The position numbers were made by a program, and so were the translations under genes. Shown one piece after another: positions 6,686 to 45,339 of a stretch of DNA of 64,000 bases. A model generated the notes under the pieces. The model was not told the DNA's origin. It worked only from the letters and a program-made list of their open reading frames with translations, and made no database searches. Numbering within the stretch: position 1 is the first letter of the stretch; each line of letters opens with the position of its first letter. Source of the DNA: a virus (taxonomy: Duplodnaviria; Heunggongvirae; Uroviricota; Caudoviricetes); the IMG/VR virus record IMGVR_UViG_2693429637_000011; one strand, given 5' to 3'.

Positions 6686-9600
6686 TTAATCCACTCCCAC
6701 TTTTTTGTTGTACTCGCGGTTAAACCGATCCACGGCAACCTTCATATCCCGCTCTACCGATTTCACCATCGCCGCCTGCTGCGCCAGACTGAGAGAACTG
6801 TCGGCATAAATGGCATCGCGCTGTTTGCGCAAATCCTTCAGTCTCTTCCGGGTATCCTGCATAAGCCCGTTCATCAACAATTTTCCGTTGTTCTCGTCAA
6901 TGAACGCCGTTCTTTCTGCACCGGTCAGACTCTTCAGCTCTGCGTGATACTGCGCAACCTCTGTCATCCGGTCGTACATCTTCTGCTGGTCTGCATACGG
7001 CATCACCTCACCCGAAATTTTCCCCAGGAAGGGCACCTGCTGTTCCGGTATATCAATACCATTCAGCGATTTCACCGCCGCATCCGTGGTTTTGGAAATG
7101 AAGCGCCCTGTCCCTCCGGAGATATAGTCAATCCAGAATTTCAGCGATTCCGGTGTGATATCCACCGCGCCGGGACGATACTGGCTGCCACCTGAGAACG
7201 CATTCAGCCAGAATGCAAACGCCTTGTACGCTTCTGGCGTTGAACGTCTTCCCAGCTGGCTGTCAGGTTTTGGTGTACCAAACGGCATGTTCTCCTGGTA
7301 AATCTGCGCCCCCATGAAGTTTTCGTTCATGGCAAGATTCGCAAACGGACGCAGAATTGTCGGTGCTGCATTTTTCAGCAATGCCCCCGACAACGTTTCC
7401 GACGTCTCGCTGCCGATCGGGCTGAATGCCCCCAGGATACCGCCGACAACATTACCGGCAGCACGTGAAGCAGTCAGGTCGCCCGCTGCCACACCTTCAG
7501 CTGTATGACCAAGCAGGAAGAACACGTTGTACCCGTAAGGCAGAGGAATACTCCAGTACTCACCGGCCTTGCCCCCGAACATCGATTTCATGATGACGAG
7601 GTTACGCTCTTTCACATGAGACGGTACTTTGTCGTACCAGTTAACCCCGTCATCATCCTCACCCGCCACACTGCGGTTAAGCGAGCCAAGCAGATAACCC
7701 GCTCCCACAGCTGCAAGCACGATTTTCTGCGGTACATTGAGATTCTTCCAGCGAAGGCGCTCCAGTAACGGTCCGTCGCCATTAAGATGTCCGAGCGTTC
7801 TCACCAGGTTTGCGGTCCCCTGAATGCTGGCGTTGGCAAACATGTACAGCGAGTTCATCAGCATCCCCTGCTCACCACGACGGTTAAAGTTCACCGTCAT
7901 GTTTTTGGCAAGAGACGCCGCCTGCTGGCGTGACAAACCGGCATCACGGGCGTGTTTATAGGCAGAAAGACGCAGAGCGTTTTCAACCGCGCCGTTGGCA
8001 TCCTCGACCAGGTTCAGGAACGAATGCCATGCACCGATACTCTGGCCTTTCCATCCGCCCTTCGCCAGCGACACAAGGCGATCCATTTCCTTCTGCTGGC
8101 CCTCAAGGTCACCCATGTTAAACCAGCCGGTTTTACCTCCGTCCTCAACAAACTCTTTCCACACTTTCTGCCACTGTGCGCCTTTGCCCGTGAGGGTTTT
8201 ACCCCGCAGACTTGCGTATACGGCTGACATGGCGGAACGGCTGTCTTTCACCACAGCCAGCGCGGATAAGTTATCCAGCTCTTTCAGTTTACCGTCGCTC
8301 CTTCCCTGCTCAGCCTTCAGGTTCATCACCGCAGTCTGCACGTCACGGATGAAGTTACTGACCAGAAATTCCGGGTTATACGACGTGTTCACCGTTGCCA
8401 GGAAGCGGTTAACTTTCCCCAGCGTACGGATTACGGCGTTACTGGTTTCCGGCCCCATGTTCTTCATCGCACGCATCAGGCGCGGATCATGAAGTTTAAT
8501 GTAGTAAGTTTTGCCGTCCTTTTTGGTGGTGAAGTAGCGATCCGCCATCATTGCCATCGGCACAGGGCGCTCGACAACTTCGCGAATGGTTTCACCAGTT
8601 TCCTGGTCCTTGCGCTCTGCAATCACACGCATTGTATCCGGTCTGTCATCAGTGAATACCTGCCAGTAATCCTTGTCGGGATTATCCTGTACCAGTTTCA
8701 GGAAGGCGTTACCCACTTCATTTTTGCGATTGCGGATCAGCGATTCACTCAAATCCTGTATCGCCTGAGTGGAAGGAGACTGTGCGCGGGATGCACGCCC
8801 CATGGCCTGCTTACTTTCACGCCCGCCGATGGTGAATCCCTTGCCTGTACGTGGCTGTGACACCACACCGTCAACATCCTGCCCTTTCAGGGGGACGTAG
8901 TAACGGTAGGCTTTCTGCCAGGCATCCACCACGCCGCTCTCTTCCAGTCCTGCCTCACGGATAATCTCACGGCGACGGGCCAGCATATCGTCAATAATCC
9001 CTGCCAGACGGTCATACTGTGCCTGTTTGCCGCTGTTACGCACACGCTGCATGATTTCCGCCGCTTCCGCGTTGGTCATCCCCGAACCGCCGTCCGGCAT
9101 TTTCGGGTTGATTTTCGCAATATGCACGTTACGTTCCGGCGCGTGACGGGCGTAGAGGTACTCATCCAGATCGGCCTGCGCAATTTTGTAGTCCGCCAGC
9201 AATTTGGCCAGCGGCTGAACGTAGCGCTCCTTCATTACGTTCAGGTCGTTTTCCGCCTTCCCGTGGAAGAGTTCTTCAGCCATATAGGCGTTATTGCTGT
9301 CATCTATTTTTCCGCCAGTTTTACGGATATTCTCCTGCACCGCCTTCAGCACCTGGAATTTATCCTGCATCTGGCGAACAAAACGGGATGCAATTGTCTC
9401 TTCCGGCGTCAGACTGCTGGTGCGGGAGTAATACGGCCCCTTGCGAATATCTTCAGGATAGAGTATTTTATCAACAGAGCCGCGATAAGAATGTTCCCCT
9501 TTGGGCAATTGGAGCCCTCTGTGCAGAAGGTTATCGCGGCTTAATTTTTCTCTCCGGTACAACGTTAAACCGGTCATTTCCATACTCTTCAGTTTTTTCC

Positions 9601-12600
9601 CGTTTTCCGTACCGTAAACAGATGCCACCTTGTTGATTTCCAGGCGCGACCGGACAGCCTTCATGTGTACCGCTGACACCACCGGATCACCATTTTTATC
9701 CACGGCATCAAGCAGCATCACAACCGCGTTTCTTTCTGTCGCGGAACGGTAAATTGCATCCGGATCGTGCATCAGTTCCGGTAGTCTCTCGATAACATCC
9801 ATCGGCACCACATGTTTCACACCATTGGTGGCCTTACGCACAGTGTCGCGGGAGATAACCAGCGGCAAATCTGGTGCGCCAAGGTGACGCAATACCGGCG
9901 GCGTACGCCCGATGTTTACCGTTAAATCCGTTGAGCGCAGAGACTTCATCATTCTGGCAAGGTCATCACGATAACGCTCGCCCTCACCTTCCGGCACTTT
10001 GAACGGATCAGGCTTACCGCTACGGGAGTACTGAGACGATGCGTCCGCGCCATCCTCACGCGGCGTGTAACCTTCCCGCACACGCTGGCCTAACGTGCGA
10101 ATAGTTTCGCGAACAAGTCTGATATCGTTCAGTTCCGTCGGCTTCAGTAACCCCGTACGACGCAGTACCCCTTTGACCAGGGCAACAACACGCTCCCATG
10201 CCGCCACGAATTTAATCGGCTGCTTCTCTGCCATATGCGCCAGAAATTCACCCGCCTGCACTTCCGGTGATTCCTTACCATAAGACGCATCAACCTTACG
10301 CCAGGCTTCACGGATGGTGGCGTTATCACTGTCACGGGTTTTCAGCACGGTCTTAATAATCGTCTGATATTCCGCTGGCGTGACTACATGCTCCATTGCA
10401 TGGTGAATAATCTCGTGACGTAACTTCTCGCGAACGGTCCGCCCGTCAGGGATGTTATCCGCCACCAGGACAATTTCACGTTTATCCGGACGATAGAACG
10501 CGTGCACCTTGCCGTAACCGTCGAATGATTCACCCGCCAGTGCTTCAGCCTCTTTCTGTGACTTCACCACGCGGACCTTCAGGTCACTGTCCTTAATGCC
10601 ACTAATCACGCCACGGGCAACAGCTTCAACCTGCGGGACCGGACTGCCTTTGGCTTCCGCACTGCGGTTAACATCCGAAATCAGATTGCCTTCAGGTGTG
10701 CGGGTCACGCCCTTACGGGAATAAAACGCAACTCCCTTGTCCGTCTCACGGGTTTTCAGTGTTCGGAACAAGTGATCGAATGCCTCACGAATACCGCCAT
10801 CCAGTTCTGCATTCGTCGGATAAGCGTAGGTGTCCGGCTGTCCATGGTCATCCGCCTTACGGATATTGACCAGATAATCATTCTCCACGCCAGCCATACG
10901 CGCTTTATCCTGAACATAACGCTCAAAGGCTCGCGCCGCCATTTCAACATCCGTTGACCAGTACGGTTTTGAACGAACGCCATCCAGGCGTTCAGAACGA
11001 CGCAACATGTCACTGCTGTTAATGGCTTTCATCACGCCTTTAAACGCGTCGTAAACCTCCTGACGTACCGGATATTCCGCATCAACATACCTGCCGTCTT
11101 TAAATACGCGCCCGGCACGCTGTGCTTCCGTCATATAGTCGCCACCTGACGTGATCTTCCCGTCAGTGGAAACATCATAACGACCAAAATAATTATCCAG
11201 TGAATGGAACCATTCGTGGGCCAGCGCCCCCGGTCCGTTACCTTTTGTCAGGTTGATTGCCACCTCACCCGGCTCATAGTGTGCCGCCGCCTTACCCTTA
11301 CCACGGGCACCAAAAGCAAGCCCAAGACGACCGTTCAGAGAAAGCGCTTTTGTCGGCACGTTCAGCACGTCAGCCAGGTCATGCAGCGAGTCATAAGCCC
11401 GGTTCAAATCAGCCTGACGACGCGGACTTTCCACATAATTACCAAACTGCACACCACGAAAACCAAACGCATCACTGAACTGCTCCGGCGAAACATCCCC
11501 CTTGCGGCGTTCTGGTCCGGTACGATCGCGGTTGGTGGCGTTACGCTGCTCCTCACGCGAGACTTCACGCAGCGCCTTCACCTGATTAACCAGCTCATCA
11601 CGATGTGTGCGCACATAATCATGTGCATCACGGGCAGACTCAAAACCGCCCTTCAGTTTCTGCCTGTTTTTGCCATAACCGATAAAAATGTCGCCACTGG
11701 CCTTATGCCGGTACACGTCAAAGGTTATTCTGTCATCAGCAGAGGTTGCTGGCGTTTCCCTTTCTCTGGAGCCTTGTTCATCGAAATATGCTTTCGCCTT
11801 TTTCAGTAACTCATCCCGGCTTTCCGAGAAAAAGAGGTCGCGCCCCTTGCTATCACGAAGCGAATACATCATTTGCGGCGGATCGTAACGTTTTCCCCCG
11901 ACAAACGAATAAACACCGGACCTGACACGATAGCCGGATGCTTTATCAATCTGCAATGCAGAAAGCGTACGGAGCAGTTTCCAGGTATCCGACATGCTCC
12001 GTAACCCCGGCTTACTGTCCATCATATCAGCCAGTTTCGCTGCCGGAATTTTCCCCTCCAGCATACCGGCAGTAGCTTCGCGACCGCTTTTAACAATGCT
12101 GATCCATTTCTGCATGTTACGGCTTGTTCTGGTGGGAATTTCACTGCGATACAACGCCATCATTGCCAGCGTGTCACTATCCACACCTTCTTTTTCCAGA
12201 CGGGCATAATCCGGCTTTGGAAACAGTTTGCTCAGTGGTTGTGTCGCGTACTCCCCATCCTCCAGCGTTTTACCCATAGCTTCAGCAAGCTGCGCATAAC
12301 GGTGTTTTGCCGCGCCCTTAATCTCCTCGCCAAAGTCTTCAATTTTCGCACCACGCGCCTGCTGGTGAGTGCTCGGTTTATCTACCGGCACCGGCACCTC
12401 AGTATCCGGAACATCGGTTATGGTCTGGCGATTATCCCCGGTCTGTCTGCGTGCTTCTGCCTGCTGTGCCAGTTCCGGAAGGGAGTCACGAACCATACGA
12501 GGGAGTGATTCAGGCTGTGGCATATCAACCCCACGCTGACTTTCAGGTGCAGGAAGACCTTCACGCACTGGTGCTGTGGCGTTCTGCTCATCCGGTGACG

Positions 12601-15037
12601 GCAGACCACGACGAACTGTTTCGCCCTCCAGTATTTCCCCCTGGCGACCAGCGGCATTTTCCGGTGCCTGCGCACGTCCTTTCTGGAAACTCTGGCCCTT
12701 CACCTCACCGGTTGTGGTAAAACGACCACCACGTCCGGCCTGATTTTCATCCGGCGTACGCGCTACTTCTCCTGGTAACGGATATCCCTGTCCGGGATGA
12801 ATATCGCCGGGAGCGGGAAGGCGTGGACGCTCAGTTAACTCCTGTGCTGTCGGACCGGCATCACCTTCAGCCATCTGGGAACGCACCAGTTCTTCCGCCG
12901 TCGGCGCGTTGCCACGAGCAAGACGGGCCTGCACTTCTGTATCATCCCCCGTAAAACCACGGAATCGCGGGTCACGCATGAACGCGGGCTGTTCCATCGG
13001 ATCAGCATCAGTAATACGCTCTCCGTCAGCCAGAGTGTTAATGGTCTCCGTTGCCACATCTTCAGAGAACGCAGGATTATCCATTTCAACGGCATACTGA
13101 TTCTCGCCTTTCTTCACTACGGACGGTTTCAGGCCGGTGGCGCTGGCATTGCGGAAAACGTCGCTCCCCAGAGCACTTTTTTCATCCGTGAAATAACGGT
13201 TGTCCGGACGCACCTTTTCAATGCGTTCTGCTGGTCTGGACGCACCACTCTCGTTAATTTCAATACGAACTTCATCCGGATCGCGGAACCGCACCGTCGG
13301 GTAAATACTCCCGTCGCCATCATCCGCATTTTCCGGCTGTGGCTGTGCCTCCGGTCTGGCCTCCCGCTGAGGGCGAAGCACATCACGTATTGCCTGTAAC
13401 TGCTGCTCTTCAGTATCAGTACGCCCTTCCTTCTGGCTGAGTTTTCGGTATTCCTCAAGCAGTTCAGGGCGCGGCTTCGCCTTCAGCTCATCCATCACCG
13501 CCTGTCGCTTCGCCTGTTCATCCAGTTCATTCAACAGCTGGCTGGCGGCTTCCCGGCGATGAACGGCAGACGTGTCTCCCTCATGTGCCATATCCGCATC
13601 AGCATACTGTTCCAGAAGCTGCTCGCGATTCATCCCCTGCATAGATTCACGATGCTGTGCCACCGGATCAACCGGTTCGGGTTGCGGAGCCGATTCGTCC
13701 TGAGGAACGCTTTCAGCCTCACGCATGGCTGCTTCATCTGCCGCCTGACGTTTTCCACGATATCCGGCAGCCGCACCGAATGGTGCCCCCATTGCAGCAC
13801 CAAGGGCTGCACCTTCGATCGTTGCGTCAGCCACGCCCTCCCACGGTGACACATCCATTCCGGCGGTCTCACGCAATGCCGTGTTTTCCTGATAGCGTGA
13901 ATAGCCACCCTGCGCCGCATTAATCGTCCCCTGTTCCGTGGCATTTCTGACAATGCCGCTTTTAACGGTCTTCGCCGTGCCCCGCATCGCCAGATTAAGC
14001 AACTGAGCATCGCCCAGTTTTGCCGCCATGGCATTCACAGCCAGCAATTCAGGATCGGTTGCCAGCTGCGCACGCACCTCATCGGCAACACGCTCTTTTG
14101 CCAGGTCCATTTTCTGGCGGTCAGTAAGCTGCGCGTGCTGCGGATCTGCATCAATTGACAAAAAGGTCTGCTGAAATTTCGGTGACTTCGCCAGCTCAGA
14201 ATAATCCGCGTTAAGAACAGCATCTGCCGCTGCCATTGCACTCCGCCCTTGCGCACTGACAGTGGAATGGGTGATCAGGCCTGCCTGGAAAAAATCCGGC
14301 ATTTTTTTATCGACAGCTTCGGCTGCCAGTGCTGTGGCTCTTTCCGGCTGCATCCCTGCCGCGATGTATTTTTTCTCCAGCCCGGCGGTCAGCACTTTTC
14401 GCAGAGTGACATCACCCAGCTTTTTAGTCACACCGCCTGCAACCATATCCGGTACAAGCGCACCAATCAGGTTAACCCCTTTCGCTACCCAGACCGCTGA
14501 ATCATCATATCCTTCAGTCATCGGTGTATTCAGCGCCCGCTGCGCCCCCGGCGACATCTTGCCAGTCAGCCATTCATCCGAGGCTTTAGCGCCGCCACTG
14601 ACGGCCTTGCCTGTGACCTTCAGACCTTTACCGACAGTATCAGTAACCGCATTTTTTCCATCAGGCAGAGTGTCGATGACCTCATCCGCCCCCTTGCTGC
14701 CACCGACAAAAATATCCTGAACAGTTGCGACTCCCGGCAGCCCCATACGGCTGAACTCATTTAAAATACGTACCCCTGTTTTTACCGGGCTCTGAATCAT
14801 CGCATCACCGAGTCCACGGGCCATTTCCCCTGTCCCCCGGACGGACTGGGCGACACCTTTCCCCATAGTTGGCAATACATCGCCCAGGCTGAACGACGTG
14901 CTGTTGTCCTTCCAGCGATTGGGATCGGAGAAAAACACATCATAGCTGTCAGTCTCTCCCGGCTGCTGAATGTTCAGGCTGTTGCGGCTCTGGTTGCCAA
15001 ATTGCGCTTCAGGGCGCTGTTCATCGGAATAAGCCAT
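6686..15037 (-). CDS. Giant (2783 aa) multidomain virion-associated protein, candidate polyvalent/ejection protein with two zincin-like HExxH motifs
   Basis: Single uninterrupted 8.35-kb ORF at the distal end of the morphogenesis operon; HEWFH (~11201-11216) followed by ...EMAARAFE; second HEIIH (~10395-10420). Confidence 0.8.
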   Translation of the reverse strand: MAYSDEQRPEAQFGNQSRNSLNIQQPGETDSYDVFFSDPNRWKDNSTSFSLGDVLPTMGKGVAQSVRGTGEMARGLGDAMIQSPVKTGVRILNEFSRMGLPGVATVQDIFVGGSKGADEVIDTLPDGKNAVTDTVGKGLKVTGKAVSGGAKASDEWLTGKMSPGAQRALNTPMTEGYDDSAVWVAKGVNLIGALVPDMVAGGVTKKLGDVTLRKVLTAGLEKKYIAAGMQPERATALAAEAVDKKMPDFFQAGLITHSTVSAQGRSAMAAADAVLNADYSELAKSPKFQQTFLSIDADPQHAQLTDRQKMDLAKERVADEVRAQLATDPELLAVNAMAAKLGDAQLLNLAMRGTAKTVKSGIVRNATEQGTINAAQGGYSRYQENTALRETAGMDVSPWEGVADATIEGAALGAAMGAPFGAAAGYRGKRQAADEAAMREAESVPQDESAPQPEPVDPVAQHRESMQGMNREQLLEQYADADMAHEGDTSAVHRREAASQLLNELDEQAKRQAVMDELKAKPRPELLEEYRKLSQKEGRTDTEEQQLQAIRDVLRPQREARPEAQPQPENADDGDGSIYPTVRFRDPDEVRIEINESGASRPAERIEKVRPDNRYFTDEKSALGSDVFRNASATGLKPSVVKKGENQYAVEMDNPAFSEDVATETINTLADGERITDADPMEQPAFMRDPRFRGFTGDDTEVQARLARGNAPTAEELVRSQMAEGDAGPTAQELTERPRLPAPGDIHPGQGYPLPGEVARTPDENQAGRGGRFTTTGEVKGQSFQKGRAQAPENAAGRQGEILEGETVRRGLPSPDEQNATAPVREGLPAPESQRGVDMPQPESLPRMVRDSLPELAQQAEARRQTGDNRQTITDVPDTEVPVPVDKPSTHQQARGAKIEDFGEEIKGAAKHRYAQLAEAMGKTLEDGEYATQPLSKLFPKPDYARLEKEGVDSDTLAMMALYRSEIPTRTSRNMQKWISIVKSGREATAGMLEGKIPAAKLADMMDSKPGLRSMSDTWKLLRTLSALQIDKASGYRVRSGVYSFVGGKRYDPPQMMYSLRDSKGRDLFFSESRDELLKKAKAYFDEQGSRERETPATSADDRITFDVYRHKASGDIFIGYGKNRQKLKGGFESARDAHDYVRTHRDELVNQVKALREVSREEQRNATNRDRTGPERRKGDVSPEQFSDAFGFRGVQFGNYVESPRRQADLNRAYDSLHDLADVLNVPTKALSLNGRLGLAFGARGKGKAAAHYEPGEVAINLTKGNGPGALAHEWFHSLDNYFGRYDVSTDGKITSGGDYMTEAQRAGRVFKDGRYVDAEYPVRQEVYDAFKGVMKAINSSDMLRRSERLDGVRSKPYWSTDVEMAARAFERYVQDKARMAGVENDYLVNIRKADDHGQPDTYAYPTNAELDGGIREAFDHLFRTLKTRETDKGVAFYSRKGVTRTPEGNLISDVNRSAEAKGSPVPQVEAVARGVISGIKDSDLKVRVVKSQKEAEALAGESFDGYGKVHAFYRPDKREIVLVADNIPDGRTVREKLRHEIIHHAMEHVVTPAEYQTIIKTVLKTRDSDNATIREAWRKVDASYGKESPEVQAGEFLAHMAEKQPIKFVAAWERVVALVKGVLRRTGLLKPTELNDIRLVRETIRTLGQRVREGYTPREDGADASSQYSRSGKPDPFKVPEGEGERYRDDLARMMKSLRSTDLTVNIGRTPPVLRHLGAPDLPLVISRDTVRKATNGVKHVVPMDVIERLPELMHDPDAIYRSATERNAVVMLLDAVDKNGDPVVSAVHMKAVRSRLEINKVASVYGTENGKKLKSMEMTGLTLYRREKLSRDNLLHRGLQLPKGEHSYRGSVDKILYPEDIRKGPYYSRTSSLTPEETIASRFVRQMQDKFQVLKAVQENIRKTGGKIDDSNNAYMAEELFHGKAENDLNVMKERYVQPLAKLLADYKIAQADLDEYLYARHAPERNVHIAKINPKMPDGGSGMTNAEAAEIMQRVRNSGKQAQYDRLAGIIDDMLARRREIIREAGLEESGVVDAWQKAYRYYVPLKGQDVDGVVSQPRTGKGFTIGGRESKQAMGRASRAQSPSTQAIQDLSESLIRNRKNEVGNAFLKLVQDNPDKDYWQVFTDDRPDTMRVIAERKDQETGETIREVVERPVPMAMMADRYFTTKKDGKTYYIKLHDPRLMRAMKNMGPETSNAVIRTLGKVNRFLATVNTSYNPEFLVSNFIRDVQTAVMNLKAEQGRSDGKLKELDNLSALAVVKDSRSAMSAVYASLRGKTLTGKGAQWQKVWKEFVEDGGKTGWFNMGDLEGQQKEMDRLVSLAKGGWKGQSIGAWHSFLNLVEDANGAVENALRLSAYKHARDAGLSRQQAASLAKNMTVNFNRRGEQGMLMNSLYMFANASIQGTANLVRTLGHLNGDGPLLERLRWKNLNVPQKIVLAAVGAGYLLGSLNRSVAGEDDDGVNWYDKVPSHVKERNLVIMKSMFGGKAGEYWSIPLPYGYNVFFLLGHTAEGVAAGDLTASRAAGNVVGGILGAFSPIGSETSETLSGALLKNAAPTILRPFANLAMNENFMGAQIYQENMPFGTPKPDSQLGRRSTPEAYKAFAFWLNAFSGGSQYRPGAVDITPESLKFWIDYISGGTGRFISKTTDAAVKSLNGIDIPEQQVPFLGKISGEVMPYADQQKMYDRMTEVAQYHAELKSLTGAERTAFIDENNGKLLMNGLMQDTRKRLKDLRKQRDAIYADSSLSLAQQAAMVKSVERDMKVAVDRFNREYNKKVGVD

Positions 15038-15047
15038 ACAGACTCCA

Positions 15048-15074
15048 TAAAAAAACCCGGCACAATGACCGGGT
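15048..15074 (-). terminator. Intrinsic terminator/attenuator just upstream of the giant gene
   Basis: cccgg-N8-ccggg hairpin followed by T-run on minus strand. Confidence 0.45.
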
Positions 15075-15105: not shown

Positions 15106-16371
15106 TTACTGCGCGTAATTCTGTTTCAGACCACGGATAAACTCAGATGCAGAGGCCGCGCTATCATCCCTGGCCTGTTCCTCCCTGGCCTTTTGAATAC
15201 GGAGAAAATTCGCATACCCGTGTTCCAGCAATTTCTGATTCTGAGGCTCCAGCATTTCTGGCTGACGGGAGGCCACTTCTCTGGCAAATGCCTGCTTATC
15301 CGGATCATCACCCGCCCAACTGGTAATCCCTTGTTGAATTTTTTGCTGCTGAATTTGCTGCTGATACTGCGGCAGTCCCATCGAAGCATAATATTGCGTC
15401 ACTGCTCCCTGCGCATCACCGCCGTCCTGTGCAACCTTTATCGCTACCTGGCTGGCTCCTTTCTGAAGTTGATCCGCAGAAAGTCCCTGCTGCTTCGGCG
15501 TGAAATAGCCGAAATTTTTCGAAATTTCCGCGAATTTACTGCGTTCCCTGACAAGCTCAACAGCCTTATCAACAGGCACCGCCAGCACGGTTTGATCATC
15601 AGGATGTGCACTGCCGTATTCCGTAACGGGTTTATGTGCTGTAGAGCCATCACTGTATGTGAGATCAAGGCCGATAAGTATGTACCCTTCCTGCTGTGCC
15701 GGTACTATACTGCCAATCCTGGCCTCTTTTATCGTCTTTTTCCCGGTTGAATCGGGCATGCCAATACGCTGTTGCAGTTCCGGGCCAAACACCCCGGAAA
15801 GGACATCAAGATTCTCCGGCGTATTAAGTGAAGCGATAGCCCTGTCTGGCTTGTCATCAAAGATTTTTTGCAGGTTGTTCACGGCCTGACCCGCTTTCGC
15901 TACATAGCCATCATTCGCCATCAGCCTCAGCGGATTACCCTCTGACAACTGGCCGTAAAGACGCATTGCTGCATCCCGATCGCCAGCATCCACAGCCTTT
16001 CCAAGCGCCGCCATCACAGGCTGATCGCGCGCCAGCATATCGTTATACTCAAGCCGTCGCTGGTTGTATTTCTGCATCCGGAGTCGCTGCTGCTCCATAC
16101 CCAGCGACGCATTCCGGTAATTCTGGTTGGCGTTAAACTCCCTTTCCTGCAGTGCATAATTACGGTCGTCGACTTTGGCTCTGTAATCAAAGTTCCGCTG
16201 ATCAACGTCTTTATTATGTTCAAACTGCGACTGTGCAAATTCAAAATCGCGCTCGTTATTTTTCTGTTGTTGAGCAAGCTGTGCTTCTCGCAAACCAAGT
16301 TCCTTACGACGGGTCATTGCCTGGTCAACCGTGCTGAATCCGGCAAGTAAACCCTGTGCAAATCCGCTCAT
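15106..16371 (-). CDS. Hypothetical virion/internal protein (Gln-rich)
   Basis: 421-aa ORF in late operon between tail-region genes and the giant gene. Confidence 0.45.
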   Translation of the reverse strand: MSGFAQGLLAGFSTVDQAMTRRKELGLREAQLAQQQKNNERDFEFAQSQFEHNKDVDQRNFDYRAKVDDRNYALQEREFNANQNYRNASLGMEQQRLRMQKYNQRRLEYNDMLARDQPVMAALGKAVDAGDRDAAMRLYGQLSEGNPLRLMANDGYVAKAGQAVNNLQKIFDDKPDRAIASLNTPENLDVLSGVFGPELQQRIGMPDSTGKKTIKEARIGSIVPAQQEGYILIGLDLTYSDGSTAHKPVTEYGSAHPDDQTVLAVPVDKAVELVRERSKFAEISKNFGYFTPKQQGLSADQLQKGASQVAIKVAQDGGDAQGAVTQYYASMGLPQYQQQIQQQKIQQGITSWAGDDPDKQAFAREVASRQPEMLEPQNQKLLEHGYANFLRIQKAREEQARDDSAASASEFIRGLKQNYAQ

Positions 16372-16381
16372 TCACCACTCC

Positions 16382-16633
16382 TTAAAACAAAGAACCAGCA
16401 ATACCACCTATGACAGCACCAATAGCCGCACCGGGGAGACCACCAACAGCAGCGCCCATAGCTGCACCCGTACCAATTCCCGTGCCGATATTCTGTTTGT
16501 TCTGCGCTTTCTGTTGCGCCGCCATCTGTTTGTTCGCGGCCTCAATTTCTTCACGTCGTCTGTCGGCATCACTTATTCCCTGTAATGCCTCACGCCGCGA
16601 CTGATTCGCAATATCCAGTAAACCGTATCCCAT
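16382..16633 (-). CDS. Small glycine-zipper membrane protein
   Basis: C-terminal GTGIGTGAAMGAAVGGLPGAAIGAVIGGIAG. Confidence 0.4.
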   Translation of the reverse strand: MGYGLLDIANQSRREALQGISDADRRREEIEAANKQMAAQQKAQNKQNIGTGIGTGAAMGAAVGGLPGAAIGAVIGGIAGSLF

Positions 16634-16642
16634 ATTGCCCCC

Positions 16643-17095
16643 TTACGCTGACACCAGTTTTCCGCCAACACTCAGTTGTTGTCTTGCAGGTGCAGAAGCC
16701 CCCGTCAGTATGTTCATCTGGCGATCCTGCTCTGCTTCACGGATACCATTTTTCGCGCCAGCAATTGCCAGAGCATTACGCAAACCCAGTGTGTTACTGT
16801 TGGGATTATCCGGGCGGCTTACCCCGTATCTCGCCATCTGGTTATCCTGCGCCATCTGCGCTGTACGGAGACTGGAAGTGGCAAGGCCGCCCACCCGGGC
16901 AAGCTGTGCATTCATCAGGCTGTTGTTCTCGCCAAGGTCAGCCAGCCTTGCCACGCGGGGCAAATATCTGGTTCGCCAGTCGTCGTATTGTTGGCGTGTC
17001 AGCGCTGCTGACGTCTGCCAGTCACCCTGTGGACGGGCAGCTCCGGTATAACCGTATCTCGCAAGTGTTTCGTATTTACCGTACTCCATAATCAC
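16643..17095 (-). CDS. Hypothetical virion protein
   Basis: ORF in operon; stop/start overlap with the upstream gene. Confidence 0.4.
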   Translation of the reverse strand: MIMEYGKYETLARYGYTGAARPQGDWQTSAALTRQQYDDWRTRYLPRVARLADLGENNSLMNAQLARVGGLATSSLRTAQMAQDNQMARYGVSRPDNPNSNTLGLRNALAIAGAKNGIREAEQDRQMNILTGASAPARQQLSVGGKLVSA

Positions 17096-17748
17096 AGTCT
17101 CCAGTTCTGAGCCTGATGCTGAATGGCATTAGCGCCGGTGCCAGGTGTTTTAGCACCGCCACTTCCTCCGCTACCGCCAGCCTTATACATCGCATATGCA
17201 CCTACCGCACCCAAACCAGCGCCAACAAGAGAGGCTCGCCCCTGCTGTTTCGTAAACGCAGCCTGTGCGTCCGATTTAGCTTTTGCCAGACTGCTGTCTG
17301 CCAGCGAGTTAAAACTCTGTAACGCATCCGCCTTTTGACCAGAACCGAGAGCAGCAACATCCTGTAGCCCGGCAACATACTTATCTGCCTGCGATACCTG
17401 CCCCCGTGTGGTTGTGTCAATCTGCCCGGTTACCTGATCACTCTGGTTCGCATTCATTACCGCGTTAAAGCGACCACTGGACGGGTCAACACCGGACTGA
17501 GCAAGATTACCCGCCAGCTCCTTCCGTGCTTCGCCAAACTGTTTCTGATACCCCAGATTTGTGGTGCCAGCAATATTGTCGTACTGCTGCTCACTGTTCA
17601 GGTCATCGACCTTTTCCATGAAGTTATCTTCAGCCGGGCGGAGGATTTTTTGATAATCCTGCCACCCTTTCCAGGCCACTTCTTCCTGTGCTATTTGCGC
17701 TGCTGTTGGTTTTACTTTGGTATCACCACCGCCTTTTTTTCCGCCCAT
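17092..17748 (-). CDS. Hypothetical virion protein (Gly-rich ends)
   Basis: ORF in operon; terminator-like hairpin upstream at ~17765-17789. Confidence 0.4.
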   Translation of the reverse strand: MGGKKGGGDTKVKPTAAQIAQEEVAWKGWQDYQKILRPAEDNFMEKVDDLNSEQQYDNIAGTTNLGYQKQFGEARKELAGNLAQSGVDPSSGRFNAVMNANQSDQVTGQIDTTTRGQVSQADKYVAGLQDVAALGSGQKADALQSFNSLADSSLAKAKSDAQAAFTKQQGRASLVGAGLGAVGAYAMYKAGGSGGSGGAKTPGTGANAIQHQAQNWRL

Positions 17749-39224: not shown

Positions 39225-41135
39225 TTATGCGGCTGCTCCAGCTTTGTTTGCTTTAACTTCCACCGTATCAATAAGTACAGGGTAGGTTTCTGCACTACCT
39301 GTAATATCCGTAATGACAAACCTGTTGAGTCCATTAGCAGTATTGGCCCATTTCACCAGGTCAAACGCCTGTCCATCCACACCATCGAGCACCGGAGTAA
39401 CATTAATGCTGTTACTGCCCTTAAATTTAAATGCAAGCGTATGCCAGTCATGGTCGAATGCGCCAAACGTGCCAAGTTCTTTTTGTTGATTAACTGTATG
39501 ATGGTATGCAACATTAATACTGGCTTTATCTGTCTGGACAAAGAAAGAACTCAGATGGCCTTCACCACCCTCACCCGGCCATTCCGCTATTCGCCAGTAC
39601 AAACCAAAGGCATACTTGTTTCTGGTTGTCTCAAGATTGACGTTTTCGGGGATTTTAAACCGGACAGCAATTTCTCCGCCTTTTTCCAGTAAAAGTTTTG
39701 CCTTGTCTGCAGCAATATCACAGTACATTGACCAGGATTTCGCGCTGTTATTTTTCTCAATTCGCAGAGCTTTATTGCCGCTGTCATCAACCAGTGTGCG
39801 CCTGCCATACACACCGTCCCAGCCATAGGGTTTCAGCTGATTGTCTGTAGCTTTTTTGGCATCGTAAAAAATTACAGACTCTGAGGTGGTAACCGGTCTG
39901 TCTGGAACAACCACCCCGGCAGTACCATTAACAAACGCAGAAGACTTACCCGCGCAGCTCAGAATCGCAGTTGCCAGACGGTCGGAAATAATCCCACGGC
40001 GAGCCCATGAACTGAAATGGCTCGCCCTGTCCTGTGACGTCCAGGTGGCTGAGCTGTCACGCCATTTCGAACCGTAATAACCGATACCCGGAATGTCCGG
40101 GTCTTCTTCCGGTTTGTTCGTCGGCACATTCACCCCGTTCTCATCGGTCATGAACGGTACGAAATGGATATTCTTTTCCGTTTTATTTTTATAGCTGCCG
40201 TACACCGTCTGGTACGTGGATTCGTTCTTCTGCTTCCAGAAATACGTCGTGTCCCCGCATATCCAGGGAACACCGCCAGCAGAGCCACCGACGCACTGGC
40301 CTGCCATATCCGCCAGGTCTGCACGGAATTTATCAACCAGCGCACCAAACTGTGCGGCATGATTTGCCGGCGTACCGCCAAAATCAAATTCCCCCTGCAT
40401 CCACACCACGGCAAACAGCACATTTTTCGGGTTCTTCTCCAGTGCCGCTTTTGTTCGACCGATAAGGTCCTTATACAGCGGCTTGTCCACACCCCAGCGG
40501 GTTGAATTCTCCGAGGCGCCACTCGCGTCACTGTATGTGCCATCAGCTCCGGTGGTGAACGCTGAACCACCACGACAGCACGGAACCAGCAGAATGCCCG
40601 CATTCGCCGGTATAAACGGCAGCAGTTTTTTGGCGATATGCAGCCCCTGCCCCACGGTTCCGTACTGCCCCTTTGACAGGTCCGCTTTCGGATGGTTAAG
40701 ACGGCTCATGTCCTGCACATCATGCAGACAATGGTCCGCCGGAATGATGTCGTTATATTTGCATGCTGCACCGCCCGGTGTCACCGTACTGCGACGCGCT
40801 AACTGTTTAATACGTGGATCAGGGCTGTCGAATGTATCCGGTAATGGCAGTCCCTCACCGTATGACATACCATTGGACTGACCAGCAAGCGCGATCACAT
40901 AGTAATATTCTGGCGCAACAGAAGGCGCTGAGGTCGTCGGACGGTTGCCTGGCTCCTCTGGTGATGAGATGCTCCCCTCACTCACAACTGGCTGGATGAA
41001 CTCCGCACCATAACCAGCTGTCGAAATCAGCGCACTACCATAAGGCTGCCACCCTTCCTTCAGTTTTTGAGTTATTCGTTTCGCAAGGTCTGACGGCGAC
41101 GCCGCCCTGACAACATCATAGTGTTTAAATGCCAT
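39225..41135 (-). CDS. nanS-p: Sialate O-acetylesterase, prophage NanS-p-like (copy 1)
   Basis: 636 aa; GQSN catalytic motif of the SASA/SGNH esterase family; conserved N-terminal MAFKHYDVVRAASPSDLAK...KEGWQP domain. Confidence 0.7.
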   Translation of the reverse strand: MAFKHYDVVRAASPSDLAKRITQKLKEGWQPYGSALISTAGYGAEFIQPVVSEGSISSPEEPGNRPTTSAPSVAPEYYYVIALAGQSNGMSYGEGLPLPDTFDSPDPRIKQLARRSTVTPGGAACKYNDIIPADHCLHDVQDMSRLNHPKADLSKGQYGTVGQGLHIAKKLLPFIPANAGILLVPCCRGGSAFTTGADGTYSDASGASENSTRWGVDKPLYKDLIGRTKAALEKNPKNVLFAVVWMQGEFDFGGTPANHAAQFGALVDKFRADLADMAGQCVGGSAGGVPWICGDTTYFWKQKNESTYQTVYGSYKNKTEKNIHFVPFMTDENGVNVPTNKPEEDPDIPGIGYYGSKWRDSSATWTSQDRASHFSSWARRGIISDRLATAILSCAGKSSAFVNGTAGVVVPDRPVTTSESVIFYDAKKATDNQLKPYGWDGVYGRRTLVDDSGNKALRIEKNNSAKSWSMYCDIAADKAKLLLEKGGEIAVRFKIPENVNLETTRNKYAFGLYWRIAEWPGEGGEGHLSSFFVQTDKASINVAYHHTVNQQKELGTFGAFDHDWHTLAFKFKGSNSINVTPVLDGVDGQAFDLVKWANTANGLNRFVITDITGSAETYPVLIDTVEVKANKAGAAA

Positions 41136-41557
41136 GAATCCTCCCGGCCGGGATAATATTGTGAGTAAAATAAGGAGCGGGCTGAAGTCCGGAAGTTACA
41201 GGACAATGGCAGAAGGGAGACTACAGCCCGCAATTCGAAAAAGGTCGCGCAGTTGCGCAGAGTGATTACTATGGGGTATTATTCGCCAGCTGAAATATTA
41301 CTTCACGTTTCATTGTTCATTCCTTGCCGCCCGCGTCTCCCAGCGCGGGCTTTTTTGTCCATAAGAAAGCCCCTCCGGAGAGGGGCTGGAGAGTGGCGCT
41401 ATGTGCCATTGCATGGTGCCGGGTGCCTCCCGGTGAGTTCAGCCCGGTGCCACTAAACCCGCGTCATTCTCGTTTTGATAATCAGAGATTATACCGTCAC
41501 CAGTCGCCCCTCCGCTCAGGGGGATTCACCATGCAGTTTTTTCTAACAAATTCTCAT
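41050..41557. repeat. Repeat A copy 1 (nanS-p 5' end plus ~400-bp upstream element)
   Basis: Near-identical to 45250..45742 and, in part, 46000..46300; contains hairpin cccgcg-N8-cgcggg plus T-run and a perfect TATAAT on the minus strand. Confidence 0.6.
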
Positions 41558-42596
41558 CAGCGCGGGTTTGATTACCGTATCCCTTCATTGGTCGGTTATT
41601 CATGTCCGTCAGCAACTCCCGAAGGCGTGCATTCAGCGCCCTGAGCGTGTGGAAGGTTTCATTACGGATGCGGGCAAGAAGCCATCGCTCGACGATGAGG
41701 ACGCCGTTTTCTGCTTTTGGTTTATCTTTAGGTTTGCGCGGGCGGGCCGGGATAATAACCGTGCCATAGTGCTCAGCCAGCGCCTGATAACTGTCGTTGA
41801 TGACAGGCTCATAGCGATCGGCTTTTTTCACTGCGCTTCTGAGGTTATCGGGGATGAGCAGCTTCGGTACGCCGCCCAGGAAGGTCAGGCAACGGCTGTG
41901 GGCATTTAACCATGACATCATGTCCTGACCTTCGCACGCTTCAACATAGGTATAGTTGGACGCCCCCATTACAGCCACGAAGATTGCCACGCGGCGTATC
42001 TCTCCGGTGTCCGGATTAATAACAGGGACCGTAGGACCACAGAAGTCGATAAAGAGCTTTTCGCCAGCACGATGCTCCTGTCGCATGGAGAGGCGTCGCG
42101 TTTTTTTCCACTTCCGGTAGCAACGGCAGAAGTGTGAGTATCCCATCGCTTTGTCACCCGCCTGTGCCTTGTATTCCATCCACAACAGTTGGCGCGTCAC
42201 GCCAGGTTTTCTCATTTCCGTATCGAAGTACAGCATGTCAGGCATAACAAGCTCTGACGCAGAGGTGTCTTTGGGCGGGAAAATGAGTTTCTCCAGCGTG
42301 TCATGGGATATATCCGCAGGTAATGGCCATGACAGAGAAGAGGCTTTGAAGCGGGCAAGAACCTCAAAAACGGTTGAGGCGCTGATGTGTAACGTCAGTC
42401 CGATACAACGGTTAGTCAGCTTCTTATCGAACTTGAGCTGAAGGATCTTAAAACAAGTTTCCATAGTGCTCCTGGATTTTCTCTTTTTGGACATTGACGT
42501 CTCCACTGGTTTAAACACGGCAATGGAGACTGTGGTGAAAAGAGTTAATTCCCGGAGTGACTGGCGAATTCCAATCAATGATCGGAAGTATGCCAA
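41526..42596 (-). CDS. IstA-like DDE transposase, probably truncated
   Basis: HTH N-terminus and FIDFCGPTV...VAIFVAV...YTYVE core; last codons read into repeat A. Confidence 0.5.
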   Translation of the reverse strand: MAYFRSLIGIRQSLRELTLFTTVSIAVFKPVETSMSKKRKSRSTMETCFKILQLKFDKKLTNRCIGLTLHISASTVFEVLARFKASSLSWPLPADISHDTLEKLIFPPKDTSASELVMPDMLYFDTEMRKPGVTRQLLWMEYKAQAGDKAMGYSHFCRCYRKWKKTRRLSMRQEHRAGEKLFIDFCGPTVPVINPDTGEIRRVAIFVAVMGASNYTYVEACEGQDMMSWLNAHSRCLTFLGGVPKLLIPDNLRSAVKKADRYEPVINDSYQALAEHYGTVIIPARPRKPKDKPKAENGVLIVERWLLARIRNETFHTLRALNARLRELLTDMNNRPMKGYGNQTRADENLLEKTAW

Positions 42597-42720
42597 ATCG
42601 TGATCGATTGTGATGCCAAACTGTGATCGGAGATGGATGCCAAATCATGATCGATTCGAATGCCAAACTGCGATCGATTCAGATGCCATTTTGCAATCAG
42701 CGCCAGAACAGCAGCTGACA
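41526..42720 (-). mobile_element. IS21-family-like element remnant (IstA-like transposase, no IstB)
   Basis: DDE transposase-like ORF; left end carries multiple atgccaaa(c/t)(c/t)gtgatcg terminal repeats (42540-42700); 3' end abuts repeat A. Confidence 0.5.
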
Positions 42721-42800
42721 GGCCGTATTTGATTTTTGCGCTCATGGATATTTATCAGGATGCTACCAATGAAAGATACTGGAAAGCCAACTGCAAAAAG

Positions 42801-43115
42801 CTAACAACCCGTAATCGAGTTATCAGAACTGTTAATTTTTATGGTATACCGCGCCTCTGAACAGGGGCGCGTTTCTGGCAACAGCTCGTCCCCTTCACAT
42901 AACCCGGCAGCAACATCCAGGAAGACCTGTCTGATGCTCCTTCTGGCTGCTGCCTCATAAAACTCCAGCGCGGCACCTTCAACACGGTCCAGCGAGATGT
43001 CCAGGTCAAAAATTTCACCGTCAAAGCGTTTTTTGTCCCGTAACGCTAAAGTTACCGTAACTTTATTCTCAAAATTGCGGATCCCTTTCACAATCAGTTC
43101 ATAGTTTTGAGTCAT
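42801..43115 (-). CDS. DUF1327-family protein (YdfO/YbcV-like)
   Basis: MTQNYELIVKGIRNFENKVTVTLALRDKKRFDGEIFDLD... resembles E. coli cryptic-prophage DUF1327 proteins. Confidence 0.55.
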   Translation of the reverse strand: MTQNYELIVKGIRNFENKVTVTLALRDKKRFDGEIFDLDISLDRVEGAALEFYEAAARRSIRQVFLDVAAGLCEGDELLPETRPCSEARYTIKINSSDNSITGC

Positions 43116-43119
43116 TGAA

Positions 43120-43335
43120 TTACTCTCCCCGTGCAGCCTTACGACGGTCCTCTCTGATTTTGAAATACAGGTTAGTCAGATATGTCAGCAGCCCAAACAG
43201 CAGACTCCCCAGCACGCCTATTGCCGCCCACTGAGACGGGGAAACCCTGTCCAGCAACTGCAGGAACCAGTAGCCCGTTCCCACCGCTGACGTGGTGTAT
43301 GACACACCTGTTGTGATTTTTTCCATCTGGTACAT
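43120..43335 (-). CDS. Pinholin, second (orphan) copy
   Basis: 71 aa, 1 aa different from holin at 38341..38556; no adjacent endolysin or spanin. Confidence 0.75.
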
Positions 43336-43485
43336 ACCCCGTCTCCCGTTATCCGGAAGCTGACAACAATAAAAAAAGCCACCAGTTAAGTACTGATGGC
43401 TCTGATAACTCATGCAGGCATCTCAGACGACCCACTGACACTACCGGTGAGTTTAACGATACCTTCCATTTGGCTGGCTCACTTT

Positions 43486-45339
43486 TTATGATGATGCCGG
43501 TGCATTTATCTCCAGCACCAGACTTTCTATCTCAACGCCATACGCTGCATTTTTGGTAATATCCGTCAGCGTCAGCGCATTCAGCCCCAGTGTCAGACTG
43601 TCTTTTATGACCTGGAATGCCGGGCCAGCCACTCCATTCAGTTTCGGAGTAACCGTGGCACTGCCGGCGGTGAACACCAGCTCCAGCGTCAGCCAGTCGT
43701 TACTGTAATTCCCGAACTCGCCCAACTTTGTGTTTCCTGCTTTCTTGTGATGCATCAGATTCAGTTTGCCGTCTGTGGTCTGGGTGAAGAACGACATCAG
43801 GAACGGGTTACCAGTCCCGGTCATCGCCACGACGTCAGGTAACGCTACATCGGTATACAGATAAATTCCCAGACCGAACTGGTTGTTGGTCAGTGCGCCT
43901 GACAGTCGAAACTTACAGCTCAGTCTGCCACCCCGTGTCAGCAGGGAGACTGCGTCATCCACCGGGCGCGTCAGGGACCAGGCTTTATTGCTCTGCTTGG
44001 TGATCTTAAATACACCATCTGACAACTGAACTCCGCCATTCTTAATGCTCCAGCCCTGCGCAGCAGCGTCTCCGGCTGTCGGCAACAGGGAGATTGTGCG
44101 TATGGATGCATCTTCAGACGGCCCCGATGGCGTGTCGCCGCCGGGCGAGGGTTTGATTTCCGGTGCCTTACCACTAATGAAGGCTAAGGTGCGACCGGCT
44201 ACGTTCAGAATAGCAGTTGCCATACGATCGGGAATAATGCCACGACGCGCCCATGAGCTGAAATGCGTCGGGCGATTTGATGATACCCAGTTTTTGTTCG
44301 TTCGGGATGCCGAACCGTAATAACCAGACCCGGCAATATCAGGATCTTCTGACGGGTTGTTTGTCGGTGTATTAACTCCGCTACCATCGGTCATAAAGGG
44401 AACAAAATAAATCTGCTGGGATTCTTTACCTTTATATGCACCATATACCACTTCATATTGCGTACCGTGTTCTTGTTTCCACGCGTATGTCGTGTCGCCA
44501 CAAATCCAGGGGACTGATGCCGGACTTCCACCGTGACACTGCGCCGCCAGCCCGGCAAGGTCAGCACGGAACTGCTGTACCATTGCAAGAAATGCTGCTG
44601 GCTGCTGGGCGTAACTGGCATTCGTCATATCGAATTCCCCCTGCATCCAGCATATCGCCAGCAAAACGTTTTTCGGGTTTTTCTGCAATGCTGCCTTCGT
44701 GCGGAAAAGCAGATCCTGATATAACGGCTTACCCACTCCCCAGCGAGCCGAATCCTGACTGGCCCCCGTGGACTCGCTGAATGTCCCCTCCGTGCCCTGG
44801 GTGAATGCCGAACCACCACGACAGCATGGTACCAGCAGGATCCCCGCATTATTAGGGATATACGGAAGCAGTTTTTTGGCAATATGTAAGCCCTGTCCGA
44901 CACAGCCGTACTGCCCTTTGCTCAGGTCAGCCCGGGGATGGTTAATCGTACTCATATCCTGAACATCATGCAGACAATGGTCAGCAGGAATGATGTCGTT
45001 AAATACGCATACTTCACCACCGGGAGTCACTGTGTTACGACGGGCCAGTTGCTTAATGCGCGGATGGGGCGCATCGTATGAATCCGGAAGCGGAAGACCT
45101 TCACCGTAAGCCATGGCATTGGATTGCCCGGCCAGTACGATGACGTAGTACCACTCCGGCTCAGTTGCACCACTGACGACCACATCACCTTCTGCTGCAA
45201 TCGCCTGCATCAGGGTATAAGGGGTTATGGCCACCGGACTACCAAACGGCTGCCAGCCCTCCTTCAGTTTTTGTGTCAGTCGTTTCGCAAGGTCTGACGG
45301 CGATGCCGCCCTGACCACGTCATAGTGTTTAAATGCCAT
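43486..45339 (-). CDS. nanS-p: Sialate O-acetylesterase, NanS-p-like (copy 2, diverged paralog)
   Basis: 617 aa; GQSN motif; N-terminus identical to copy 1, remainder diverged. Confidence 0.7.
   Translation of the reverse strand: MAFKHYDVVRAASPSDLAKRLTQKLKEGWQPFGSPVAITPYTLMQAIAAEGDVVVSGATEPEWYYVIVLAGQSNAMAYGEGLPLPDSYDAPHPRIKQLARRNTVTPGGEVCVFNDIIPADHCLHDVQDMSTINHPRADLSKGQYGCVGQGLHIAKKLLPYIPNNAGILLVPCCRGGSAFTQGTEGTFSESTGASQDSARWGVGKPLYQDLLFRTKAALQKNPKNVLLAICWMQGEFDMTNASYAQQPAAFLAMVQQFRADLAGLAAQCHGGSPASVPWICGDTTYAWKQEHGTQYEVVYGAYKGKESQQIYFVPFMTDGSGVNTPTNNPSEDPDIAGSGYYGSASRTNKNWVSSNRPTHFSSWARRGIIPDRMATAILNVAGRTLAFISGKAPEIKPSPGGDTPSGPSEDASIRTISLLPTAGDAAAQGWSIKNGGVQLSDGVFKITKQSNKAWSLTRPVDDAVSLLTRGGRLSCKFRLSGALTNNQFGLGIYLYTDVALPDVVAMTGTGNPFLMSFFTQTTDGKLNLMHHKKAGNTKLGEFGNYSNDWLTLELVFTAGSATVTPKLNGVAGPAFQVIKDSLTLGLNALTLTDITKNAAYGVEIESLVLEINAPASS

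Follow-up and report, generated by a model that had tools for sequence, protein, structure and literature searches.

What is the role of a protein of 2783 amino acids (aa) encoded at the very end of the virion operon of a short-tailed phage? The question is posed by a 64,000-nucleotide (nt) stretch of viral DNA (IMG/VR record IMGVR_UViG_2693429637_000011), hereafter the window, in which positions 6686..15037 of the minus strand form a single reading frame of 8352 nt without interruption. We propose, with a probability of roughly 0.7, that the product of this gene is a giant internal protein of the virions of a short-tailed, Traversvirus-like prophage of the 933W/phi24B type, that it belongs to the class of polyvalent proteins, and that it serves as a capsid-packaged, ejected carrier of cargo domains.

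Identity, distribution and domain composition

The giant gene matches 186 phage records with 90-96% DNA identity (megablast), nearly all of them Shiga toxin (Stx)-converting short-tailed phages, phage 933W included. Of 5426 complete E. coli genomes, 427 contain it as well, with 100% identity in NZ_AP045820, and PGAP names it there either 'LPD5 domain-containing protein' or 'LPD38 domain-containing protein'. The giant proteins ST933Wp72 of phage 933W (NP_049532.1) and gp47 of phage phi24B (GenBank vb_24B_48, ADN68472.1) are orthologs of the window protein that share its place in the operon and its upstream hairpin; gp47 is 90% identical to it, colinear, and carries the same motifs. The differences from the two orthologs are only allelic and fall mostly in aa 840-1170. 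The minus-strand operon contains genes for terminase, portal, an N4-gp56-family capsid protein, adaptor, fibers and Lom, then several small genes, and is closed by the giant gene, an arrangement identical in 933W and phi24B; just a 63-aa open reading frame (ORF) follows before the strand switch. A preliminary description of this locus, made from the letters of the DNA, had read it as one uninterrupted 8.35-kb ORF ending the operon of a short-tailed virion module, and both points stand, the host element being a podovirus of the 933W/phi24B type.

Profile searches with the whole protein and with ten tiles of it identified four Pfam domains, all scoring well above their cutoffs: LPD5 (aa 1047-1190), LPD1 (1351-1430), MuF_C (1740-1829) and LPD38 (2466-2671). 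No further Pfam domain was found on the tiles, the matches to Gly-zipper, WXG100 and Peptidase_M76 being far below the cutoffs. PHROG 616, a family of unknown function, spans the protein end to end, comparison of the whole sequence with the PDB yielded nothing under E 0.6, and PADLOC gave no match. The segments of the gene are as follows, all on the minus strand.

6686..15037, minus strand: coding sequence of the giant protein (2783 aa plus stop), from the ORF call, DNA identity and colinearity with phi24B
13688..15037, minus strand: aa 1-450, Ala/Gly-rich N-terminal region by composition, no known domain
12368..13687, minus strand: aa 451-890, charged Pro/Glu/Gln/Arg-rich region of low conservation, no Pfam match
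11525..12367, minus strand: aa 891-1171, conserved 'IEDFGE...' region (alignment consensus) and LPD5 (E 4.5e-43; LPD5 itself aa 1047-1190)
10718..11524, minus strand: aa 1172-1440, zincin 1, predicted lethal-factor/MtfA-like gluzincin, from Pfam, conservation and a structure model
9938..10717, minus strand: aa 1441-1700, zincin 2, probable minimal zincin, no library family covering the region
9551..9820, minus strand: aa 1740-1829, MuF_C (Pfam E 1.4e-17; 64.1 bits, cutoff 27.6)
6689..9409, minus strand: aa ~1877-2783, constant C-terminal module (C-module), from the HMMER family search
7667-7723, minus strand: aa 2439-2457, moderately hydrophobic conserved segment of the C-module, from the alignment
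7025-7642, minus strand: aa 2466-2671, LPD38 within the C-module (Pfam)

The phage polyvalent proteins of Iyer et al. 2017 (PMC5512222) include LPD5, LPD1, LPD38, MuF-C/PBECR and zincin-like metallopeptidase domains. In the window protein several LPD and effector domains are likewise joined in one polypeptide with a zincin-like metallopeptidase, and the gene lies among virion (late) genes; the earlier assignment to the polyvalent type, and not to the tape-measure proteins, is borne out by the presence of LPD5, LPD1, MuF_C and LPD38 and by the lack of any tape-measure match.

Evidence for packaging of the giant protein in the virion

The case for packaging comes from the phi24B ortholog. According to a preprint on this phage (bioRxiv, April 2026), purified virions contain gp47 (2811 aa) in abundance, and the cryo-electron microscopy (cryo-EM) density lacks it; the authors suggest an ejection protein packaged in the capsid. 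In the supplement of the preprint gp47 ranks second with 10,962 peptide-spectrum matches (PSMs), behind the capsid protein with 17,998. By per-slice counts for whole proteins, 62% of the gel-slice PSMs of gp47 are in the four slices above the slice where the 724-aa portal protein peaks, and its identified peptides extend from aa 133 to 2701. Because the peptides span almost the whole sequence and the PSMs concentrate in the high slices, the whole giant chain of phi24B is inside the particle, mostly as a very large species. The suggestion that the window protein is packaged in the head is thus supported through its 90%-identical ortholog.

Evidence of a similar kind exists for a more distant relative. 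In the Bcep22-like Burkholderia phage JC1, the 4515-aa 'DarB-like' protein gp69, which is 79% identical to Bcep22 gp75, was found to be virion-associated by mass spectrometry, and the portal, capsid and head-closure proteins of JC1 are related to those of 933W (JC1 paper).

A constant C-terminal module behind variable cargo

When the last 950 aa of the giant protein were used for an exhaustive search with HMMER, 8557 clusters (50% identity) matched at E<=1e-3, 4735 of them at E<=1e-30. We analyzed the best 150 of the 8557 clusters, whose representatives are 555-5181 aa long (median 2633 aa), and all family counts below refer to them. The match always covers approximately aa 1877-2778 of the query; in about 140 of the 150 representatives its end is separated from the C-terminus by 0-5 residues. 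Within the C-module, 121 positions have a residue that is at least 90% conserved, and Gly-rich stretches are present. The regions upstream of the module are far from constant: zincin 2 occurs in 41 of the 150 proteins, zincin 1 in 32, and MuF_C and the N-terminal region (aa 1-450) in only 8 each. Other sampled relatives carry ART-PolyVal, or a combination of InPase, LPD1 and a Strawberry-notch helicase, or no cargo domain.

The C-module is shared by phages of quite different hosts, with 22-40% identity over 50-99% of its length: 40% in Vibrio phages, 28% in the GP4-like Ralstonia and Bcep22-like Burkholderia phages (tblastn finds it in the giant proteins of DC1, BcepIL02 and BcepMigl), and 22% in the Bacillus Pagevirus podophages. 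The 3130-aa protein of Vibrio phage 1.205.O and the 1679-aa protein of Bacillus phage Pavlov, a podovirus of a Gram-positive host, both contain the C-module and are encoded last in the virion module.

Zincin 2 stands close to the C-module: among the 41 proteins carrying it, the distance between the two is at most 68 aa in 21 and at most 300 aa in 33; for zincin 1 the median distance to the C-module is 549 aa. Since the module is constant and C-terminal, the upstream regions are variable, and zincin 2 is adjacent to the module, these architectures suggest that a core for delivery or packaging stays constant, that zincin 2 is the processing protease associated with it, and that the remainder of the chain is cargo.

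In the N-terminal part of the protein, PHROG 37568 covers aa 170-452, and the region of aa 451-890, common to 2 of the 150 relatives, is probably a disordered linker, as judged from its composition. The 'IEDFGE...'/LPD5 region, for which the structure model is confident, always accompanies zincin 1.

A predicted lethal-factor/MtfA-like metallopeptidase at HEWFH

Two HExxH motifs are present in the giant protein, where 0.04 would be expected by chance from its composition. The first of them, HEWFH (aa 1274-1278, nt 11204-11218), is followed by EMAARAFE (aa 1365-1372, nt 10922-10945). Both motifs had been recognized in the preliminary description, which took the layout for that of a zincin-like metallopeptidase; its spacing of ~60 aa has to be replaced by 87 aa, counted from the second His of HEWFH to the start of EMAARAFE, and the layout itself is supported by residue conservation and by the fold. 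In 75 homologs with less than 70% identity, H1274, E1275, H1278, D1281, Y1359, E1365, R1369 and E1372 are 100% conserved, as is the AH-x-E pattern of AHYE (1252-1255). Structure prediction gave confident models of globular enzyme-like domains for both HExxH regions. In the model of zincin 1, which has a zincin fold, HEWFH falls in helix 233-250, and Y1359, E1365, R1369 and E1372 lie at or in helix 324-342; the closest folds are substrate-specific protein endopeptidases, namely anthrax lethal factor, MtfA and Pro-Pro endopeptidase.

Conservation and model together identify HEWFH as the active-site helix of a gluzincin of the lethal-factor/MtfA type, a predicted peptidase, with LPD1 (aa 1351-1430) as the C-terminal helical half of the same domain, bearing the putative third zinc ligand. 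The NCBIfam model CLCA_X (NF041907) aligns with aa 1172-1427 at 153.8 bits, under its curated cutoff of 260; zincin 1 is a homologous domain and not a member of the CLCA_X family.

A probable second zincin at HEIIH

The second HExxH, HEIIH, had been placed at ~10395-10420 and is found at aa 1541-1545 (nt 10403-10417; HEIIHH, nt 10400-10417). In the alignment of zincin 2, H1541, E1542, H1545 and a downstream Glu about 50 residues on (aa 1592) are at least 90% conserved. Several closer homologs have HExxxH, and HEIIHH of the window protein is compatible with either spacing. A large clade of zincin 2 sequences shows WHEAFH...EEMLADAFAD, an echo of HEWFH...EMAARAFE in zincin 1. With aa 1441-1700 as query, a word-indexed search got no further than close fragments from E. 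coli and Salmonella, and the distant homologs were reached by the profile query only. Foldseek comparison of the zincin 2 model with the PDB gave no match, and the Peptidase_M76 match to this region is weak and far below the Pfam cutoff. From the conserved residues, aa 1441-1700 probably constitute a minimal zincin.

The MuF_C domain

In the preprint on phi24B, MuF-C is called a metallopeptidase that might digest peptidoglycan. For Iyer et al. (PMC5512222), MuF-C ('PBECR') is an RNase-like domain of the BECR fold that is independent of metal and carries a His in its first helix and a Ser/Thr in one of the late strands. The window protein shows these PBECR features: 12 of 13 diverse homologs retain H1742 and the Ser of ASVYG. 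We conclude from the sequence that MuF-C here is a BECR-fold RNase-like domain and not a metallopeptidase, the predicted metallopeptidase being the region of LPD1 and HEWFH. No lysozyme, transglycosylase, amidase or other cell-wall hydrolase domain was found by Pfam in the full-length protein or its tiles. A MuF / SPP1 gp7 head-morphogenesis protein was rejected as an identification, only MuF_C being present without the N-terminal Phage_Mu_F domain.

A conserved 'LQLP' (GLQLP, aa 1841-1845, window ~9500-9520, minus strand) is located right after MuF_C, ~30 residues before the C-module, and is retained in diverse homologs; it could be a domain end, a conserved linker or a cleavage site.

Absence of cysteine

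The giant protein has no Cys in 2783 aa, an outcome with a probability of about 1e-10 if Cys were as frequent as in the other proteins of the late operon (0.82%). This property extends to the family, with 121 of the 150 representatives lacking Cys and 147 having at most two. The absence of cysteine may reflect selection against disulfide formation during passage of the unfolded chain through the tail and periplasm.

Proposed mechanism and alternatives

The cargo-carrier model would work as follows. Late expression of the virion operon would yield the protein, which would enter the capsid in full length, as shown for the 90%-identical phi24B ortholog. The ~900-aa C-module would drive entry into the capsid, exit through the tail and envelope, or both, a role suggested by its strict C-terminal position behind interchangeable cargo. 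The chain would leave the capsid unfolded, with the DNA or ahead of it, and the near-absence of cysteine would avoid trapping by disulfides in the periplasm. The N-terminal two thirds would represent the cargo, comprising LPD5 with a lethal-factor/MtfA-like zinc endopeptidase, zincin 2, and the BECR-fold RNase-like MuF_C. Zincin 2, which is most often directly ahead of the C-module, would probably free the cargo in cis, and the released domains would target proteins or RNA of the host at an early stage of infection. An action against host defenses, as raised in the preliminary description, is speculative.

An alternative that is possible, yet clearly less probable, is that the zincins are host-directed toxins or anti-defense proteases like lethal factor and take no part in polyprotein processing, so that the chain stays uncut or is cut by a host protease. 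The nearest folds of zincin 1 fit such a role, being substrate-specific endopeptidases, as does the mostly high molecular weight of the protein in virions. The LPD5-zincin 1 unit also occurs in ~870-aa proteins for which no MuF_C or LPD38 is recorded (these proteins were not scanned for the C-module). However, most architectures with zincin 2 have it immediately ahead of the C-module, as would fit release in cis, and Iyer et al. (PMC5512222) argue for processing by the metallopeptidase domains of polyvalent proteins.

Less likely again, and in our opinion rather improbable, is the proposal of the phi24B preprint that the protein is purely structural, i.e. an ejection protein forming a trans-periplasmic conduit, with a metallopeptidase that digests peptidoglycan and without a cytoplasmic effector function. 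In its favor, a conduit is needed by podoviruses, a conserved segment of the C-module is moderately hydrophobic and Gly-rich stretches occur in the module too, and the preprint argues from the abundance of gp47 together with its invisibility in the map. However, the preprint puts the metallopeptidase in MuF-C, which both Pfam and Iyer et al. class as BECR RNase-like. Zincin 1 resembles protein endopeptidases and not cell-wall hydrolases. No lysozyme, transglycosylase or amidase domain was found by Pfam. The ART, helicase and pyrophosphatase cargo of the relatives has known targets in the cytoplasm.

The annotation of the Burkholderia relatives would make the giant protein a DarB-type antirestriction protein, which we consider very improbable. 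PHROG 10089 ('DarB-like antirestriction') matches aa 2344-2671, and tblastn aligns the Bcep22-like 'DarB-like' proteins with 28% identity over 83% of the C-terminal query, but the similarity is limited to the C-module, and the PADLOC search, as mentioned above, was negative. Membership in the family of P1 DarB was rejected, the defining methyltransferase and helicase domains both being absent from the full-length protein and its tiles (Pfam). Finally, a tape-measure or other tail-length-determining protein, favored only by the great length and the position late in the virion operon, is excluded: the phage type is a podovirus with a solved short tail, whose density lacks the protein, Pfam and PHROG give no tape-measure matches, and the domains are globular and enzyme-like with confident models.

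The giant gene makes up ~13% of the genome in the commonest type of Shiga-toxin-converting phage. If the cargo-carrier model is true, two proteases and an RNase-like domain would be injected into every new E. coli host, which could bear on the spread of stx and on host-range barriers. A broader generalization, which we regard as speculative and tentative, is that the C-module is a universal device for capsid loading and envelope crossing, equipped with interchangeable effector cargo that is freed by the adjacent zincin, and that cysteine avoidance is needed for passage of the periplasm. If so, it would define a large and mostly undescribed group of short-tailed phages of Gram-negative and Gram-positive hosts, a counterpart of polymorphic-toxin delivery. 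The practical gains are modest: correction of the annotation, naming of the predicted catalytic residues, and the use of the C-module and the cysteine-free rule as search handles for related ejected proteins.

Upstream signals, neighboring genes and other features of the window

The following features lie immediately 5' of the giant gene.

15043..15046, minus strand: GGAG ribosome-binding site, 5 nt ahead of the ATG at 15037
15048..15074, minus strand: terminator-like hairpin ACCCGGTCATTGTGCCGGGT with a T7 run, directly 5' of the giant gene
15106..17748, minus strand: four upstream genes (218, 150, 83 and 421 aa), all cysteine-free

The hairpin (15074..15055, minus strand) has a G+C-rich stem of 7 bp with five G-C pairs and is followed by the T7 run. 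It is flanked by the stop codon of the preceding gene (15106) and by the GGAG-N5-ATG start of the giant gene. That the gene is preceded by its own hairpin terminator had been noticed before; hairpin, T-run, GGAG and ATG are all retained in 933W and phi24B. The deposited starts of the giant genes of 933W and phi24B are 13 codons further upstream, within the conserved hairpin. In the window gene, 933W and phi24B alike, the conserved GGAG-N5-ATG just behind the T-run seems preferable as a start.

The four upstream genes may encode fellow internal or ejection proteins, which together with the giant gene would form a cassette leaving the capsid at infection. According to the phi24B preprint data, homologs of the 421-, 150- and 218-aa genes are found in virions, and in Vibrio phage 1.205.O a cassette with similar gene sizes and order is located ahead of the giant gene. 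The 83-aa ORF (16382-16633, minus strand) has a Gly-zipper/class II bacteriocin-like C-terminus and is annotated as 'bacteriocin' in 933W; its phi24B counterpart is represented by just 13 PSMs in virion preparations and was deemed a contaminant by the preprint authors.

Elsewhere in the window, the interval 39225-45339 on the minus strand contains a pair of carbohydrate esterase genes of the NanS-like SASA type (39225-41135 and 43486-45339); between them lie a DUF1327 gene and the transposase ORF of an insertion sequence (41526-42596), which has an rve domain. A single esterase occupies this location in NZ_AP045820, a genome that matches in other respects, so the window represents another strain or arrangement. 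The prophage of NZ_AP045820 has no annotation between the Q antiterminator and the esterase, so it appears to be a Stx-phage-like element with no stx. In the window list (ORFs of at least 100 aa, 15000-64000) there is no Stx A-sized ORF, stx not having been explicitly searched for.

Comparison with known systems

The N4 virion RNA polymerase gp50 is the classical giant protein (3500 aa) that is packaged and injected. Its gene, like that of the window protein, closes an operon that encodes a capsid protein of the N4-gp56 family, and gp50 too is free of cysteine over its 3500 aa. However, gp50 lacks detectable sequence similarity to the C-module or to either zincin (hidden Markov model and HH comparisons were insignificant), and the window protein has no RNA polymerase domain according to Pfam, and so an N4-like virion RNA polymerase was rejected. 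The two resemble each other in how they work and in gene order, and not as members of one family.

Anthrax lethal factor, MtfA (M90) and the Pro-Pro endopeptidases (M34), the closest structural relatives of zincin 1, are only 9-14% identical to it, and differ in having a shorter spacer than its 87 aa between HExxH and the Glu helix and in lacking the fusion with LPD5. The giant proteins of Bcep22-like phages (JC1 gp69, Bcep22 gp75), GP4-like Ralstonia phages, Vibrio phages and Pagevirus share the C-module, and in the Vibrio and Bacillus phages examined and in the Bcep22-like phages (JC1 paper) it is encoded by the last large gene of the virion module; the cargo of the Burkholderia proteins is of the helicase/methylase type, unlike that of the window protein.

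At the level of protein class the parallel is with the phage polyvalent proteins (PMC5512222), which are likewise giant, multidomain and found in a virion gene context, with LPD5, LPD1, LPD38, MuF-C/PBECR and metallopeptidase domains. Both the giant gene, which has an ortholog already listed among polyvalent-type virion proteins, and this class are already described (Iyer et al. 2017; 2026 phi24B preprint). LPD1, LPD5 and LPD38 were left unassigned by Iyer et al., whereas here LPD1 with HEWFH is reassigned to a lethal-factor-like gluzincin and LPD38 becomes part of the ~900-aa C-module. To this we add a probable second zincin beside the C-module, the corrected label of MuF-C, the extent and strict C-terminal position of the module, and the family-wide lack of cysteine. 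These additions sharpen the hypotheses about the giant protein and leave its category unchanged.

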